DNA of 32,043 nt from a virus (lineage: Duplodnaviria; Heunggongvirae; Uroviricota; Caudoviricetes): IMG/VR virus record IMGVR_UViG_2713896773_000025. One strand, 5' to 3'. Shown piece by piece: positions 230 to 9,091 of this stretch. Each line of letters starts with the position of its first letter. Positions within the stretch are counted from its first letter, which is position 1. The position numbers were made by a program, and so were the translations under genes. Under the pieces are notes generated by a model. That model was not told where the DNA came from. It did not search any database and worked only from the letters and a program-made list of their open reading frames with translations.

Positions 230-2287
230 ATGTTCGTGACTGTTAACGAATTAGTTGGCGTCCCTGGACTGCCAACAACACAACAAGGACTGCGATACAG
301 CCTTAAAAAAAGTGCAGGCAACTCCCCTGAACTGGTTCGCAAACGTGCTGGCAGCAAAGCATTCGAGTACCACATCGACTGCCTGCCTGAACAGGCGCGT
401 GAAATAGTCAAAGCCCGGCATTATCGCGAGGTGCTGAAACAGTCTGATTGTTCATCAGCGCCGACTGCACCAAAGCGGGAAGTCACCACGACTCGCGATG
501 AACTGACGTTATTGCGGCAGTGCCCGGTATTGCTGGAGCGTGAGGTCTCTGACCTTACCGAACGCCAGAAACAGATCGCCGACGCCCGCGCATTATTAGC
601 CGCAGAGGTTGAGCGTCTTCGGGATATCGGTATGTCACGCGCATCGGCGGTTGAGTTCATCGCCAAAGAGTCACGCAAGGGCACGTTGCCGGAAAACATC
701 CAGGCTGCGGCTGATATTGCCAATGCGCGTAAAGGTTCCAGCCGTCGTGGCGTGGGCGAAAGAACACTTCAGGAATGGCTGTCTGTTTACCTTTCTACAC
801 GTCCAGGTATCGAACGCCTGGCTTTGCTGGCACCAGGCCATCTTAAAGCGCGTAAGCCTGAGCAGATTAAGTGGCTCCCTGATTTTCTCGCCCACTGGCG
901 GAAACTATCAGGCCCTTCTCTGGTGGATGCGTGGCGCTCATTCAAGACTGAATGGCAGGCTATTTATGCGGGACAGCCAGCGATGCTCGCCGTCTGTCCG
1001 TCTTATGATGCCGTGCGTCGGGCGATGGAAAAGCTACCAAAACGTGAACGCGCTCGCGGCCGTATCAGCGGTTCAGCGGCTCTGGCTTATGAGGTTTATC
1101 AGAAGCGTGACTGGTCACAAATGCCAGTAAATGGTTGCTGGATTGCGGATGGTAAATCGCTGGATATGAAAGTTGCTCATCCGGTCCATGGTCGTCCATT
1201 CACACCTGAACTGACGCTGGTTATCGATGGCCGCACCCGCTACCTGGTGGGCTGGAGCCTGGCGCTCTCAGAGAACGTCATCGCCGTAGCGGATGCCTAT
1301 CGCTACGCCATGAAATTCCACGGAAAACCTCTTTTTGTCTATTCGGATAACGGTGGCGGTGAAACCAATAAAACGCTGGATGCTGATATCACCGGTATTT
1401 TCACCCGCATGGGTATTGATCACCCGACCAGTATTCCGGGTCGACCGCAGTCACGCGGGATTATCGAACGACTGAACGCCGTAATACCGAGAGCGATTGC
1501 CAATAAATTTGATACTTACAATGGATTCGGGGCCGACCGTGAGCATGTGCGGATGACCGGTCGCGCTATCCAGTCAGCGATTAAGGCTCAGGAGAATGGG
1601 CGCGAACTCACGAGCGTACAGCGTAACGCGCTGCGTAAATTGCCGTCGTGGCAGATGCTGCTGGATACCATTGCTGAGGAAGTCGACAAATACAACAACC
1701 TGCATGAGCACAGCGAGCTACCAAAACGTAATGGTGTGCATATGACGCCAGCACAGTACCGCCGCGAGGTTCTGGCCACTGAGGGTGACGATATTGAATA
1801 TCTGACGGATATCGAGCTTCGTGAAGCCTTCATGCCGGAAATGTGCCGCACCGCCCAGCGGGGCTGGATTGACCTGATGAATAACCAGTATTTCAGCGCT
1901 GACCTGATACAGGTCGACGGTGAGGAAGTCCGGGTCGCCTATGACATTCACGACCCTGCTGCCGTCATCGTTCGTCGCATGGACGGTACTTATGTCTGCA
2001 CCGCCATCTGGAACGGCAATAAGCGTGCCGCGCTGCCAACCAGCATGATGGATATCGCCGTTGAGAAACGCCGCCAGCGTCGTCTGAAGCGCATCGACGA
2101 ACAACGGGAAGAGATTGAAGCAGAGGCAAGAGGTCTGCTTCCTGAAAGCGATATGTACCCTGATTTCGGCGCATTAATACCATCGGACGCAGAGCGTATT
2201 AATGATGCTCGGGAACATGTGTTCCTGTTCGAATCAGAGCGTGAAGAATGGCTGAAAAGTCAGGGCAATAAAAAAGCGGCCTTCTGA
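230..2287 (+). CDS. A: MuA-family DDE transposase (685 aa)
   Basis: Long ORF directly after ner; N-terminal region resembles the Mu A DNA-binding domain; size and position fit MuA. Confidence 0.9.
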   Translation: MFVTVNELVGVPGLPTTQQGLRYSLKKSAGNSPELVRKRAGSKAFEYHIDCLPEQAREIVKARHYREVLKQSDCSSAPTAPKREVTTTRDELTLLRQCPVLLEREVSDLTERQKQIADARALLAAEVERLRDIGMSRASAVEFIAKESRKGTLPENIQAAADIANARKGSSRRGVGERTLQEWLSVYLSTRPGIERLALLAPGHLKARKPEQIKWLPDFLAHWRKLSGPSLVDAWRSFKTEWQAIYAGQPAMLAVCPSYDAVRRAMEKLPKRERARGRISGSAALAYEVYQKRDWSQMPVNGCWIADGKSLDMKVAHPVHGRPFTPELTLVIDGRTRYLVGWSLALSENVIAVADAYRYAMKFHGKPLFVYSDNGGGETNKTLDADITGIFTRMGIDHPTSIPGRPQSRGIIERLNAVIPRAIANKFDTYNGFGADREHVRMTGRAIQSAIKAQENGRELTSVQRNALRKLPSWQMLLDTIAEEVDKYNNLHEHSELPKRNGVHMTPAQYRREVLATEGDDIEYLTDIELREAFMPEMCRTAQRGWIDLMNNQYFSADLIQVDGEEVRVAYDIHDPAAVIVRRMDGTYVCTAIWNGNKRAALPTSMMDIAVEKRRQRRLKRIDEQREEIEAEARGLLPESDMYPDFGALIPSDAERINDAREHVFLFESEREEWLKSQGNKKAAF

Positions 2288-2332: not shown

Positions 2333-3226
2333 ATGTCAGCTAAAAATGAACTTGTCGAACTGATGAAAGCAAAAGGTCTTAACCAGACACAGGTCGCCCG
2401 CGCCATTGGTAAGAGCTCGGCCGTAATCAGCCAGTATCTGAATAATAAATACGACGGCGATATTGTATCGCTGGAAAACGATATTCGTAGCTTTATCGAT
2501 CGTCAGCATGAAAAAGAACGTTCGGCACGTATCAGCGTCAAATTTGTTGATACCCCAACAACGCGCAAAGCCGTTGATGTTATACGCATGGCACACGTCG
2601 AAGGTGATATCAACGTGCTCTACGGCGAAGCCGGTCTGGGCAAGACGATGATTTGCAAAGCCTACGTCTCCAAATACCGGGATGCGTTGCTGATTGAGGC
2701 AGACCCTGGCTACACCGCACGGGTAGTCCTGGAAGAGCTCTGTAACCTGCTGGGGCTCAGTACGCGCGGCAATATGCACGAACTCAGCGAGGCCTGCATC
2801 AACAAGCTGCGCGACTCCGGACGCGTGCTGATTATTGATGAAGCCGAGAACCTCCCTCTGCGTGCGCTGGAATCTATCCGCCGCATCCATGACAAAACGG
2901 GGATCGGCATCGTCCTGGTTGGTATGCCTCGCCTGATTCTGAACCTCAAGGGCAAACGCGGTGAGCTCGTACAGCTCTATAGCCGTGTCGGTTTCGCCCT
3001 CAACCTCGGGCATAGCCTGCCGGGTGCTGATATTGACGTCATCGCCAGCAGCGTTCTCCCGGATGGCCTGAATGAAGACCTGAGCAAAGCGCTGTTCAAT
3101 GCGTCAAAAGGTAACGCCCGCCGATTGTTCAAGCTGCTGCGCGGTGCGGTCCGCACCAGCGCGATGAATGATGTTCCGGTCAGCGGTCATATCGTCAACC
3201 AGATAGCTGAAATGCTGATCCATTAA
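2333..3226 (+). CDS. B: MuB-like AAA+ ATPase, transposition target DNA activator (297 aa)
   Basis: Walker A GEAGLGKT and Walker B-like LIIDEAE; N-terminal HTH-like segment; GAGGAAG RBS 7 nt upstream; position immediately after A. Confidence 0.88.
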   Translation: MSAKNELVELMKAKGLNQTQVARAIGKSSAVISQYLNNKYDGDIVSLENDIRSFIDRQHEKERSARISVKFVDTPTTRKAVDVIRMAHVEGDINVLYGEAGLGKTMICKAYVSKYRDALLIEADPGYTARVVLEELCNLLGLSTRGNMHELSEACINKLRDSGRVLIIDEAENLPLRALESIRRIHDKTGIGIVLVGMPRLILNLKGKRGELVQLYSRVGFALNLGHSLPGADIDVIASSVLPDGLNEDLSKALFNASKGNARRLFKLLRGAVRTSAMNDVPVSGHIVNQIAEMLIH

Positions 3227-3729: not shown

Positions 3730-4369
3730 AAACACCATCAAACAATACACTACCACCCAGGCACCAGAGGGATACTGGACTGATGCTCGCGGCGTTCTGA
3801 CGCCTGTCAGTCTGATTAAAGAAATCGACCGCGACCGCGACCAGCTCGTTGGCGAACTCGTTACGCAGGCGATTATCGTTTCCTCTGCCCTGAGTGAGCT
3901 GAAATCACGCGCCTTTGCTGATATTCAGGCATTTATCGACCTTTCAGCGGAGAAATACGGGGCCATCAAAGGCGGTAAAAAAGGTAATGTCACGCTCTAC
4001 AGCTTTGATGGCCGTTTCAAAATCCAGCGAGCCATGCAGGACCGAATCGCCCTGGACGAGCGGATTCAGACTGCAAAGGCGCTTATTGATACCTGCCTCG
4101 CTGACTGGACAGAAGGTGCCCGTCCTGAGCTGAAGGCGCTGGTCAATGAGGCGTTTGATACTGACAAAGAAGGCAATATCAATACCGGGCGTGTCCTGGC
4201 ACTCCGTCGTCTGGAAATTGATGATGATCGCTGGCAGCAAGCCATGCAGGCCATCGGTGAGGCTGTGCAGGTCGTCGGTAGCCGTTCTTATATCCGCGTG
4301 TATGAGCGTGTTGGTGATTCGGATGAATATCGTCCGATTGCCCTCGATATTGCAGGTGCAGGGGTGTGA
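3719..4369 (+). CDS. Mu-family early protein, DUF3164-like (216 aa)
   Basis: ATG at 3719 preceded by GGGGA RBS (track ORF begins earlier at 3656); sequence type recalled from Mu-like prophage early regions; assignment unverified. Confidence 0.5.
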   Translation: MSTENTIKQYTTTQAPEGYWTDARGVLTPVSLIKEIDRDRDQLVGELVTQAIIVSSALSELKSRAFADIQAFIDLSAEKYGAIKGGKKGNVTLYSFDGRFKIQRAMQDRIALDERIQTAKALIDTCLADWTEGARPELKALVNEAFDTDKEGNINTGRVLALRRLEIDDDRWQQAMQAIGEAVQVVGSRSYIRVYERVGDSDEYRPIALDIAGAGV

Positions 4370-4370
4370 T

Positions 4371-4595
4371 ATGTCTGGAAAAATTAAAGAAAATTCAGCT
4401 CGCAACAACTACGGATGCTATGCCACCGGCGCGATTCGTGCCGAACGTAATGGCGAATATTCCAGGGCTGCTGAATTATGGGGTAAAGCGTTGATGTTTG
4501 CTCGTGGCACTTCCGGTCGATTCTGGGCCACTCGTCGACTGGAGTTCTGCGCGAACGCGGCTACTCGCGGCTGGGGGATTTCGGATGAAAGCTAA
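4371..4595 (+). CDS. small regulator-like protein, possibly ANR/PerC-like (74 aa)
   Basis: Internal ATG at 4371 two nt after the upstream stop; GEYSRAAELWGKAL...ARRLEFC motif reminiscent of ANR-family small regulators; family call is tentative. Confidence 0.4.
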   Translation: MSGKIKENSARNNYGCYATGAIRAERNGEYSRAAELWGKALMFARGTSGRFWATRRLEFCANAATRGWGISDES

Positions 4596-4776
4596 AGAGT
4601 TCAACCAAAAATATCCGGTTGGTAGCGTCTTTATTTATCAGCCGAATCCGGTTTTACGTGGTGGTAAGGTCGTCAGCACCGTTGATCTGGCTCGCGACTG
4701 CCGCGATGTATCGGTAGTTGAAATAAATCAGGAACCTTATTTCGCCAATATTAAATCGCTGATACCTGCTGGCTGA
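4585..4776 (+). CDS. small protein, paralog copy 1 (63 aa)
   Basis: N-terminal AKEFNQKYPVGSVFIY matches AKTFNQRFPVGSQFHY of the ORF at 7365..7574; internal ATG at 4585. Confidence 0.5.
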   Translation: MKAKEFNQKYPVGSVFIYQPNPVLRGGKVVSTVDLARDCRDVSVVEINQEPYFANIKSLIPAG

Positions 4777-4856
4777 AATAACTTTTAATTAAACCTGTTT
4801 TAAATATGGCGTAAACCTGCCGGGGGTGGCTTACGCCTGAATTAAGGAGTTCTGTA

Positions 4857-5576
4857 ATGGAAAATAAAGAGAAATATATCCAGAGAATTAAAAAGCTGCT
4901 CGCGATGGCGCGTAATAACTCCAGCGCCGAAGAAGCCGCACTTGCCCTTAGCCGCGCTCAGCGCCTGATGGAAACCCACAAACTGACTGAGGCTGATGCT
5001 GATTTGATGGATATCAATGAAGCTTCTACCCAGAAGGCCCCCTCTCATGCTGAGAAGATGCCGGAATATATGGCAATACTGGCAGAGATGGTCGCGCGCG
5101 TTTTTGGCGTGAAGTTTTACACCAGCCATGGCGCTGAGCAGTGGGGCAAGCCAGCAAAACGCACCATACACTATTACGGCCCCGACGAACGCCCTCAGAT
5201 AGCGGCATATTCATTCGAAGTTCTGGGTAAGCAACTGGCGAAAGCCCGCCGTGATTACCTCTCCACATTACGCAAGAACATCAAACAGGCCACAAAAGTT
5301 GCCCGCGCCGATACCTTCTGTTCCGCCTGGGTCAACGGTGCTTATGCCGTTGTCAGTGATTTCGCTGTTACGGAGGCGGAGACAACGCTGATGGAGTGTT
5401 ACCGCAGCAGGAAATTAAGCGAAGGCATGAAAAAGCTGGAACCGCGCAAACCCGGCAAAGCCAGGGGAACGGATAAGGCGGAAAACGAGGGATATCTGGC
5501 TGGCCGCAATGCGCAGCTGCATCACGCGGTAAGCAGTTCAGCTAATAAATGCGAACAGATTGGAGTGACAAAATGA
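4857..5576 (+). CDS. DUF2786-like phage protein (239 aa)
   Basis: AAGGAG RBS; N-terminal KYIQRIKKLLAMARNNSSAEEAALALSRAQRLM resembles the DUF2786 signature recalled from phage early regions. Confidence 0.6.
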   Translation: MENKEKYIQRIKKLLAMARNNSSAEEAALALSRAQRLMETHKLTEADADLMDINEASTQKAPSHAEKMPEYMAILAEMVARVFGVKFYTSHGAEQWGKPAKRTIHYYGPDERPQIAAYSFEVLGKQLAKARRDYLSTLRKNIKQATKVARADTFCSAWVNGAYAVVSDFAVTEAETTLMECYRSRKLSEGMKKLEPRKPGKARGTDKAENEGYLAGRNAQLHHAVSSSANKCEQIGVTK

Positions 5577-5926
5577 AAATCTCGCCTCAACTGGAAACTA
5601 CGCCAGTCAAAGAACTCGTAGCAGCCGGGCATGCGCTGGCGAAAGAACTACATTGCGCTGAGTGTGCCGCGCTGGTTCGCAATCTGGCAACAGCGCTTGA
5701 TGTCCAGTTTGCTCGTGCCAACGCGCTAACGGTTGTTGATGTTAGTGACCCTAATGTGCTGGCGCAGCTGGATGAGCTGGAAGCTGTGAACGAGCTGTTT
5801 TTACGTGCAAAGCAGCTGATGTATCAATCAGGAGGGGCACCAATCGAAAACTCATTGAATCCGATTGATGCATGGCTGTATGACGCAGAACGCGCTGCCG
5901 CTGCCGCTGCCGGTAAAGGAGAGTGA
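5573..5926 (+). CDS. hypothetical protein (117 aa)
   Basis: ATGA start/stop overlap with upstream gene; Ala-rich C-terminus; no family recognised. Confidence 0.5.
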   Translation: MKISPQLETTPVKELVAAGHALAKELHCAECAALVRNLATALDVQFARANALTVVDVSDPNVLAQLDELEAVNELFLRAKQLMYQSGGAPIENSLNPIDAWLYDAERAAAAAAGKGE

Positions 5927-7574: not shown

Positions 7575-7580
7575 AAGTAA

Positions 7581-7622
7581 GTCATTACAGCAGGCACTTC
7601 ATAAAGTGCCTGCTGTAATGAC
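7581..7622. repeat. perfect 19-bp inverted repeat with 4-nt loop
   Basis: GTCATTACAGCAGGCACTT cata AAGTGCCTGCTGTAATGAC read directly from sequence; lies between the last early accessory ORF and the gemA RBS. Confidence 0.85.
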
Positions 7623-7641
7623 AACCAACAGGAGAAATATT

Positions 7642-8118
7642 ATGTCCACGCCAGCAAAACGAGGCCTTATAGGTGCAATTAAAGCCGGTCAGGCATATCT
7701 GGGGTGGGATGAGGTAACCTACCGTAGTGTTCTGTCTCGCTTATGCAACGGTAAAACATCATCCACTAAATGCACCCTCGACGAGCTGCAGGCTGTCAGG
7801 GAATATATGCATGACAAGGGTTTTCCTCGCTACTCAGCAAAACACGGTCGACGCCCAAAGGTTGCCAATACGCGCGAGTCAATTCTTTCTAAAATTAACG
7901 CATTACTTGCAGATGCAAAACGTCCGTGGAATTATGCCGAGAAAATGTGCGATCATATGTTTCACGTCAAATACATCGAGTGGTTGACGACTGAACAGTT
8001 AACCAAACTCATGCAGGCTCTCAGCATTGATGCGAGTCGGCGAAAAAAGCGGGAGCGTAATAATGAATCTGGAACAGGTAACGGAGCTGCTGCCATCAGC
8101 AGTGATTCAAATAGCTGA
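7642..8118 (+). CDS. gemA: GemA-like regulatory protein (158 aa)
   Basis: ATG at 7642 with AGGAG RBS; KRGLIGAIKAGQAYLGWDE...YRSVL pattern recalled from the Mu GemA/DUF1018 family; sits immediately before the Mor-like gene. Confidence 0.7.
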   Translation: MSTPAKRGLIGAIKAGQAYLGWDEVTYRSVLSRLCNGKTSSTKCTLDELQAVREYMHDKGFPRYSAKHGRRPKVANTRESILSKINALLADAKRPWNYAEKMCDHMFHVKYIEWLTTEQLTKLMQALSIDASRRKKRERNNESGTGNGAAAISSDSNS

Positions 8119-9011: not shown

Positions 9012-9013
9012 TT

Positions 9014-9091
9014 CCACTGAACCTCTTCACCTGATTATTCACCTAACCCGATGAAATACTGACGCCATCCCTTTTTAACCGGATGGCGTTA
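9014..9091 (+). promoter_or_regulatory. late-promoter-like element, copy 1: conserved motif CCACTGAACCTCTTCACC (9014..9031) plus hairpin 9060..9091 burying the endolysin start codon
   Basis: Motif is one of three near-identical copies; hairpin arms TGACGCCATCC / GGATGGCGTTA (one G-U pair) with a 10-nt loop; ATG at 9091. Confidence 0.55.

Follow-up and report, generated by a model that had tools for sequence, protein, structure and literature searches.

A conserved intergenic stem-loop module at the accessory-gene junction of enterobacterial Mu-like prophages

Introduction

Stem-loops that lie between two cistrons and lack a U-tract shield the upstream mRNA from 3' exonucleases. Examples are the repetitive extragenic palindromic (REP) element between malE and malF, the puf hairpins and the 3' hairpins of the RNase III sites of phage T7. 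In T7, RNase III processing leaves such protective 3' hairpins and can also alter downstream translation; typical sites span about two helical turns, with an irregular duplex of ~20 base pairs (bp). The promoter-early stem-loop (PeSL) cassettes of T4-type phages are another kind of intergenic element (Arbiol et al. 2010, PMC2839356; Comeau et al. 2014, PMC4122927). In these cassettes a strong sigma-70 promoter is coupled to an effective terminator, and one genome contains many of them. Here, we describe a hairpin in an intergenic gap of a stretch of 32,043 nucleotides (nt) of a virus of the Caudoviricetes, IMG/VR record IMGVR_UViG_2713896773_000025. This whole stretch is referred to below as the window. 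By gene map and annotation it is a Mu-like (transposable) prophage, with the genes of its early operon all on the plus strand. The hairpin, at 4808-4837, is more than a local oddity: it belongs to a highly conserved module at a junction where genes are shuffled throughout a phage family.

E. coli, Citrobacter, Enterobacter, Salmonella, Yersinia and their relatives commonly carry Mu-like prophages, in which the early "semi-essential" region stores accessory genes of unknown nature.

The Conserved Module

The hairpin is the core of a non-coding module of ~52 nt, which consists of the sequence TTTAAAWAT, an imperfect hairpin of 30 nt, the sequence WRAATY and a Shine-Dalgarno (SD) sequence. In the window, the parts of the module and its leader are as follows.

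4777-4807, plus strand: AT-rich untranslated leader, of which the last 9 nt (4799-4807, TTTAAATAT) fit TTTAAAWAT
4808-4817, plus strand: 5' arm of the hairpin, GGCGTAAACC, read from the sequence
4818-4827, plus strand: loop, tgccgggggt, read from the sequence
4828-4837, plus strand: 3' arm of the hairpin, GGCTTACGCC, read from the sequence
4838-4849, plus strand: 3' flank TGAATT (consensus WRAATY) and SD AAGGAG, from position counts

An earlier reading of the window, made from the letters alone (the sequence-only reading), had described an imperfect hairpin with one mismatch, an AT-rich stretch before it and an AAGGAG ribosome-binding site after it. All three are borne out. The hairpin at 4808-4837 has exactly the sequence described, the mismatch being A x C at arm position 8 versus 23; the stretch at 4777-4807 has 13% G+C; and AAGGAG, at 4844-4849, is followed by an ATG at 4857.

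The consensus of the flanks was derived from position counts on 64 non-redundant contexts. TTTAAAWAT precedes the hairpin, WRAATY and a purine-rich SD follow it, and from about +12 onwards the composition is random. The window agrees with this family consensus throughout 4799-4849. Furthermore, a covariance model built on 36 diverse copies of the module finds a single copy in the window, on the plus strand at 4798-4849, with 68.5 bits. Neither this model nor a search with the arm pattern, of which 0.01 occurrences are expected in the window, detects further copies there. In the AT-rich leader of the window (4777-4807) and of its relatives, up to three motifs resembling TTTAAA or TAATTTAA occur with a spacing of about 11-13 nt; they sit at alignment columns of about 20-26, 33-39 and 44-50.

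The lower stem of the hairpin, 7 bp of GGCGTAA/TTACGCC, is nearly invariant. Above it lie the 8/23 mismatch, two C-G pairs and a second irregular position, 11/20, and the apex is a short, variable, G+C-rich stem with a tetraloop. The stem comprises 7+2+3 bp in the window, and the helix that is conserved across variants has 13 bp with two mismatches. Both mismatch positions are conserved, 8/23 being A·C in 24 of the 36 diverse variants, while G1-G4 and G28/C30 are unchanged in all 36.

A mini open reading frame (ORF) of two codons, ATG-GCG-TAA (4806-4814), overlaps the 5' arm. Among the relatives, A is found at -2 in 53 of 64 contexts and T at -1 in 59 of 64, and where arm positions 6 and 7 vary (TAA to TGA or TAG), the codon is still a stop. 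A functional mini-ORF was considered; it has no SD and does not occur in two widespread types, ...ACAGGCG and ...ATTGGCG, and it is treated as incidental.

A Junction between Conserved and Variable Genes

The position of the module is as conserved on one side as it is variable on the other. Among 230 hairpin occurrences, the gene on the left belongs to one family in 216, and the genes on the right to at least 26 unrelated families. When phages that are alike on the left and different on the right are compared, their similarity ends right after the GGAG of the SD. The module is thus the right-hand border of a conserved early block, made up of the genes for transposase A, B, DUF3164, an ANR/PerC-like protein and a protein of 63 amino acids (aa), in a large family of enterobacterial Mu-like prophages. 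Five loci (L041, L049, L090, L195 and L196) contain two copies, which bracket an inserted gene. The unit repeated on both sides of this gene measures ~75 nt and consists of ~20 nt of the AT-rich leader, the hairpin and the SD. These sequence patterns would fit gene exchange by recombination at the module.

The right-hand neighbour opens with a plus-strand SD and a start codon in every listed context, with one annotated exception. In E. coli E2348/69 (L194, 3119-3337), RefSeq has a minus-strand ORF, E2348C_RS14150, directly to the right of the hairpin. At the same position, a plus-strand ORF of 60 aa (MNIAKQKKFAREI...) with its own SD is annotated in the close relative L195, and one of these two opposing calls is probably wrong.

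Distribution among Phages and Prophages

The exact arms are present in 84 IMG/VR viral contigs. Similar copies are found in E. coli at 97 places, in 67 of 5426 complete genomes. A host repeat of the REP type, with hundreds of dispersed copies, can be rejected on these counts. All four E. coli loci inspected lie in Mu-like prophages, directly 3' of a homologous 63-aa gene. Strains that have the element include the enteropathogenic E. coli E2348/69, with the hairpin at 2,721,846-2,721,875 of NC_011601, and E. coli FDAARGOS_1303. Separate searches were anchored on the 63-aa protein instead of the hairpin, and they place the hairpin 3' of this gene in 69 of 69 distinct viral contexts and in 42 of 44 metagenome contexts. 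One of the two metagenome exceptions is a contig that diverges a few bases downstream of the 63-aa gene; the other, L228, was missed by the search pattern and does have a hairpin variant.

A megablast search of isolated phages with 4300-5600 of the window gave no match, and the sole match of a distant search was Pseudomonas phage VW-6B (L193, MF975721). This phage has a full-scoring hairpin at 2500-2551 (68.9 bits), together with the 63-aa gene. Its hairpin is of a type typical of enterobacterial prophages, and the phage was deposited as infecting Pseudomonas fluorescens; furthermore, a 38-aa ORF 3' of the hairpin is annotated as "putative holin". Both the host assignment and the holin label may deserve a check.

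Degenerate copies, in which the stem is broken and which score 21-31 bits, exist in P2/186-like phages (PSP3, Fels-2 and Klebsiella 4LV2017). By their covariance scores, these eroded copies are located as follows.

2494-2544 of L191: eroded module copy of PSP3
2494-2544 of L192: eroded module copy of Fels-2
1494-1544 of L247 and L248: eroded module copies

They read GGCGTAAACCCGCCGGG...GCC-AAATTCAGGAG, so that the 5' half and AAATTCAGGAG are retained. The eroded copies lie directly upstream of an orf79/DUF2732 homologue in the early lytic operon, a junction analogous to that of the Mu-like phages, and the 63-aa gene was not seen in the P2/186-like phages that carry them. The sequences suggest that the junction has been exchanged between Mu-like and P2-like phages.

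Selection on Pairing

The pairing of the hairpin is maintained by selection. In the 36 diverse variants, double-sided changes are found at 8 of 13 pairs, in 22 cells. Examples are the replacement of A-U by G-C at 6/25 and of U-A by C-G at 5/26, of C-G by U-A at 9/22 with a U·G intermediate, and the series C-G, U-G, U-A at 13/18. The covariation score was matched by none of 500 shuffles; the underlying counts are of sequences and not of independent events, part of them reflects register shifts between sub-families, and no formal probability is attached. As a control, the 3' partner was slid along the sequence, which left 20-43% of the cells paired as against 85% in the real structure.

The sequence-only reading had proposed the folding energy as a check, and here the outcome is divided. 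A plus-strand 46-mer folds with -14.8 kcal/mol (z -1.39), which was equalled by 21 of 200 shuffles, and the whole gap of 80 nt gives a z of -0.12 when folded. The energy of the plus strand alone is therefore within chance, and it is the rarity and the conservation of the motif that go beyond it.

This selection bears on the idea that the module is only a recombination linker, which would provide shared homology for module exchange in mosaic Mu-like phages and have no regulatory role. The location at a conserved-to-variable junction with at least 26 downstream families fits it, as do the duplicated units around inserted genes, the end of the homology at the SD and the degenerate copies at the equivalent early-operon junction of the P2/186-like phages. 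Shuffling at conserved intergenic motifs has a precedent in the PeSL elements of T4-type phages (PMC2839356, PMC4122927), although these are themselves functional promoter-terminator units. However, homology for recombination does not need a hairpin, yet compensatory changes maintain the pairing, and divergent clades retain the hairpin with a different primary sequence. A mere linker is, in our estimation, quite unlikely.

It could also be imagined that the module is a sequence-specific protein site, either as an RNA hairpin or as a DNA inverted repeat, that controls the expression of the accessory region. The 63-aa protein, the ANR/PerC-like protein or a host factor could be the binder. Such a site would account for the near-invariance of the lower stem (with G1-G4 and G28/C30 fixed) despite the divergence of the linked protein to 41-71% identity, and for the conservation of the mismatches 8/23 and 11/20. 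The linkage to the 63-aa gene is strict, and the copy is eroded, with a broken stem, in the P2/186-like phages not seen to have this gene. In an AlphaFold2 (AF2) model, the 63-aa protein appears to be a small beta-barrel of the SH3/Tudor/KOW-like class, which includes nucleic-acid binders. The predicted fold is a generic one that says little on function and is not decisive, and we regard a protein site of this kind as rather improbable.

Which Strand Acts

The hairpin folds differently on the two strands. The minus-strand form is the more stable one in 28 of the 36 variants, with means of -16.7 kcal/mol for the minus and -14.4 kcal/mol for the plus strand. In the window it reaches -18.6 kcal/mol (z -2.99), because the A x C mismatch turns into G·U there. 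On the other hand, within the 11 regularly paired positions, plus-strand G·U is found in 16 cells at 7 pairs, as against A·C in 3 cells at 2 pairs. The divergent clades L197 and L198 have a plus-strand stem of 13 bp with 3-4 G·U pairs (-21.9 kcal/mol), whereas their minus strand is weak (-12.6 to -14.8 kcal/mol) and has no T-tract. More generally, in L197, L198, L233, L242 and the L016-like type the plus-strand hairpin stays good and contains several G·U pairs, and the minus-strand hairpins are at -7.5 to -14.8 kcal/mol without a T-tract. These sequence comparisons favour the sense (plus) strand with moderate confidence.

The greater stability of the minus strand raises another explanation, in which the hairpin is an intrinsic terminator of that strand and leftward antisense transcripts from the accessory region stop before the core early genes and the repressor end. 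In addition to the energies in the window and the 28 of 36 variants, with 8/23 as G·U, the common type with its flanks folds with -25.4 kcal/mol (z -5.2), and TTTAAAWAT becomes a tail AUWUUUAAA that has 4-5 T in its first 8 nt in 48 of the 64 contexts. Nevertheless, 5 T in 8 are reached in 21 of 64 contexts only, and the tail in the window, ATATTTAA, has 4 T and is not called by the scan. The setting does not agree with it either. On the right, a plus-strand SD and start codon follow in the listed contexts, and the minus-strand ORF of E2348/69 overlaps a plus-strand ORF. Both in the window and in the listed relatives, all neighbouring genes have plus-strand orientation. No minus-strand promoter is conserved, and none can be, because the DNA to the right of the hairpin is unrelated between phages. 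Finally, the plus-strand G·U pairs of several clades break the minus stem (-7.5 to -14.8 kcal/mol), again without a T-tract. A minus-strand terminator therefore seems unlikely to us.

Signals Tested and Ruled Out

The sequence-only reading had doubted that the hairpin is a classic terminator and had instead suggested a processing or attenuation element or an internal promoter boundary. The doubt was justified. On the plus strand there is no U-tract, and within about 20 nt come an SD and a start codon that belong to the same operon. Most of the 64 relatives have 2-3 T in the 8 nt that follow the stem, and 59 of them have at most 3 T; the tail in the window, TGAATTAA, has 3 T, which is below the approximately 5 U in 8 nt expected of an intrinsic terminator. 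A terminator scan of the window makes no call at the hairpin. A plus-strand intrinsic terminator is thus rejected, since the G+C-rich stem-loop is present and the U-tract is not.

Of the three suggestions, a processing element is plausible and comes close to the reading favoured below, while the promoter boundary and attenuation are not supported. For a promoter boundary, the best sigma-70 match averages 7.0 out of 12 in 33 diverse contexts as compared to 7.44 in composition-matched shuffles, and the promoter scan of the window calls no promoter at the hairpin gap. Classical attenuation is not supported by RNAalifold, which on 26 diverse contexts predicts the hairpin only and no conserved alternative or long-range pairing. 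Sequestration of the SD by the upstream U-rich tract was also considered. Pairing between the two amounts to 0.56 versus 0.46 in shuffles (p 0.02, mostly a composition effect). The L001 type folds in this way, but the pairing is not conserved and is only marginally above the composition controls, and this candidate was dropped.

Rfam contains no match to the window at the gathering threshold, and a relaxed search with 4740-4900 returned one match with an E-value of 5.8, which is noise. An integron attC site is rejected since a direct reading of the arms GGCGTAAACC/GGCTTACGCC shows no fit to the core sites RYYYAAC and GTTRRRY; the sole recombinase listed in the loci of which the annotation was read is the DDE transposase. 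Neither do the arm sequences fit a CRISPR-type repeat, when compared by eye with the consensus. A boxA/nut site, for which a conserved boxA of the form CGCTCTT(T)A would be expected, was discarded as well: TCTTTAA exists in some relatives and is not conserved, and C at -10 (CUCUUUA) is found in 11 of the 64 contexts.

Proposed Role

We tentatively favour, at somewhat less than an even chance, a sense-strand mRNA stem-loop that would be at the same time a border for stability or processing, a portable ribosome-binding platform and a crossover point for the shuffling of accessory genes. In the sense early mRNA, the stem-loop would block 3'-to-5' decay or set processed ends at the 3' border of the early block. 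The stability of the core early message would thereby become independent of the downstream accessory gene. To any gene placed after the module, a standard SD would be offered just 3' of a locally closed structure. Because the module is near-identical between phages, it may furthermore act as a homologous crossover site for the exchange or insertion of accessory genes. This reading is favoured because the hairpin is conserved, lies at a border, covaries, is duplicated around inserts and has neither a promoter nor a plus-strand U-tract. That sense RNA is the active form, with an effect on mRNA stability, processing or translation, is proposed by analogy with the intercistronic stem-loops mentioned in the introduction.

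Several points weigh against an mRNA stem-loop of this type. RNA ends or differential stability at the hairpin are only inferred. The plus-strand hairpin is moderately stable (mean -14.4 kcal/mol), and the minus strand is stabler in 28 of the 36 variants. The A·C at 8/23, which would be G·U on the minus strand, is kept in 24 of the 36. The GGCGTA/TACGCC stem is near-invariant while the adjacent 63-aa protein has diverged to about 40-70% identity, and such an invariant stem beside a diverged protein points to a sequence-specific partner. A simple stability hairpin leaves both TTTAAAWAT directly 5' of the stem and the 8/23 A·C unexplained.

A more speculative proposal takes up these points. The invariant stem and the fixed A·C and C·U mismatches might be the recognition site of a dedicated factor, for which the always-adjacent 63-aa SH3-like protein would be the most obvious candidate, and site and factor would then make up a hitherto undescribed switch that works post-transcriptionally in transposable phages. 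We consider this fairly improbable. If true, the switch, by antitermination, processing or translational gating, would decide on the expression of the hyper-variable accessory genes, and it would define a cassette-like "expression slot" for recombined foreign genes. Should the stem prove to be a protein recognition site, the early genes of transposable phages would be subject to a new level of control.

Genome Setting and Neighbouring Genes

The genes of the early region that have been mentioned above are located in the window as follows.

230-2287, plus strand: Mu-type transposase gene (685 aa), the transposase A of the early block
2333-3226, plus strand: B-like AAA ATPase gene, from the gene map
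4413-4595, plus strand: gene for an ANR/PerC-like small regulator (weak Pfam PerC match, E-value 0.0015; PHROG 2227)
4585-4776, plus strand: 63-aa gene (PHROG 5591, no Pfam family), with stop codon TGA at 4774-4776; left-hand partner of the hairpin
4857-5576, plus strand: DUF2786/DUF7168 gene, which fills the variable slot in this phage and starts with the ATG at 4857

The B-like gene is followed by a run of small plus-strand early genes and then by GemA, Mor, endolysin and structural genes, and an annotated E. coli relative has the identical gene order. In the window, the ANR/PerC-like gene and the start of the 63-aa gene share 11 nt, and the two genes are found side by side in annotated E. 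coli relatives as well. Between the 63-aa gene and the DUF2786/DUF7168 gene, the gap extends from 4777 to 4856 (80 nt). It had been singled out as the largest in the early operon, which is correct by a margin of 1 nt only, since in the plus-strand gene map the other gaps measure 45 nt (2288-2332), 67 nt (7575-7641) and 79 nt (9012-9090).

Two of these other gaps contain inverted repeats of their own. At 7581-7622, a perfect inverted repeat of 19 bp with a 4-nt loop (GTCATTACAGCAGGCACTT cata AAGTGCCTGCTGTAATGAC) lies in the 67-nt gap that precedes the GemA-like gene (7642-8118) and takes up most of it. This repeat is much stronger than the hairpin studied here and is flagged by the scan as terminator-like on the minus strand. 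It is absent from all fetched loci, though most of these stop short of that region. A second inverted repeat, at 2269-2312 (TAAAAAAGCGGCCT ... AGGCCGCTGATTTA), covers the end of the transposase gene (stop codon at 2285-2287) and part of the 45-nt gap before the B-like gene, and could be a modulator of the A/B expression ratio.

Comparison with Known Systems

A full-text literature search for the hairpin sequence gave no match. In the literature on Mu-like early regions no hairpin element of this kind was found, and a paper on Pseudomonas Mu-like phages does not mention a hairpin. The element can best be classed with conserved intergenic stem-loops or junction modules, and no earlier description of it was found. 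It is a candidate regulatory RNA for a phage family that is without such an element in Rfam or literature searches, and it would offer a way to locate accessory-gene slots in prophages and to set their limits.

With the lambda nut site (boxA and boxB), the module has in common that a hairpin in an early operon follows a pyrimidine-rich motif of the TTTAA type, which in some relatives is TCTTTAA, as in the rrn boxA. However, its stem has 13 bp, in contrast to the 5 bp and the pentaloop of boxB, and no N-like protein was identified. In certain aspects, it is also reminiscent of the early RNase III sites of T7, which are conserved, irregular and mismatched hairpins that sit between the genes of a polycistronic early mRNA of a phage. 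Here the difference lies in the helix, which has 13 bp with two mismatches and extends into the flanks only by weak pairing that is not conserved.

Like the module, REP elements and bacterial interspersed mosaic elements (BIME), the REP of malE-malF and the puf hairpins are imperfect palindromes, rich in G+C and ~30 nt long, that lie in transcribed gaps between cistrons. As in stabilisers of this type, there is no U-tract, mismatches are conserved and the position is between a gene block and the genes downstream of it. Unlike REP and BIME, the module is borne by phages and is not a host repeat, its stabilising effect is a putative one by analogy, and its sequence shows no evident relation to the REP consensus apart from a chance GGCGTAAAC.

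The resemblance to the PeSL cassettes concerns the organisation of the genome. In both cases, a short, conserved intergenic stem-loop motif in an early, non-essential and hyper-variable region flanks unrelated small genes at points of swapping or insertion, which in the case of the module are putative. In contrast to the PeSL, the module has no promoter signal and no plus-strand U-tract, occurs in one or two copies per phage, lies inside one operon and holds the SD for the next gene. The module would represent a second case, beyond the T4-type phages, in which the shuffling of modules is organised by a conserved motif between genes.
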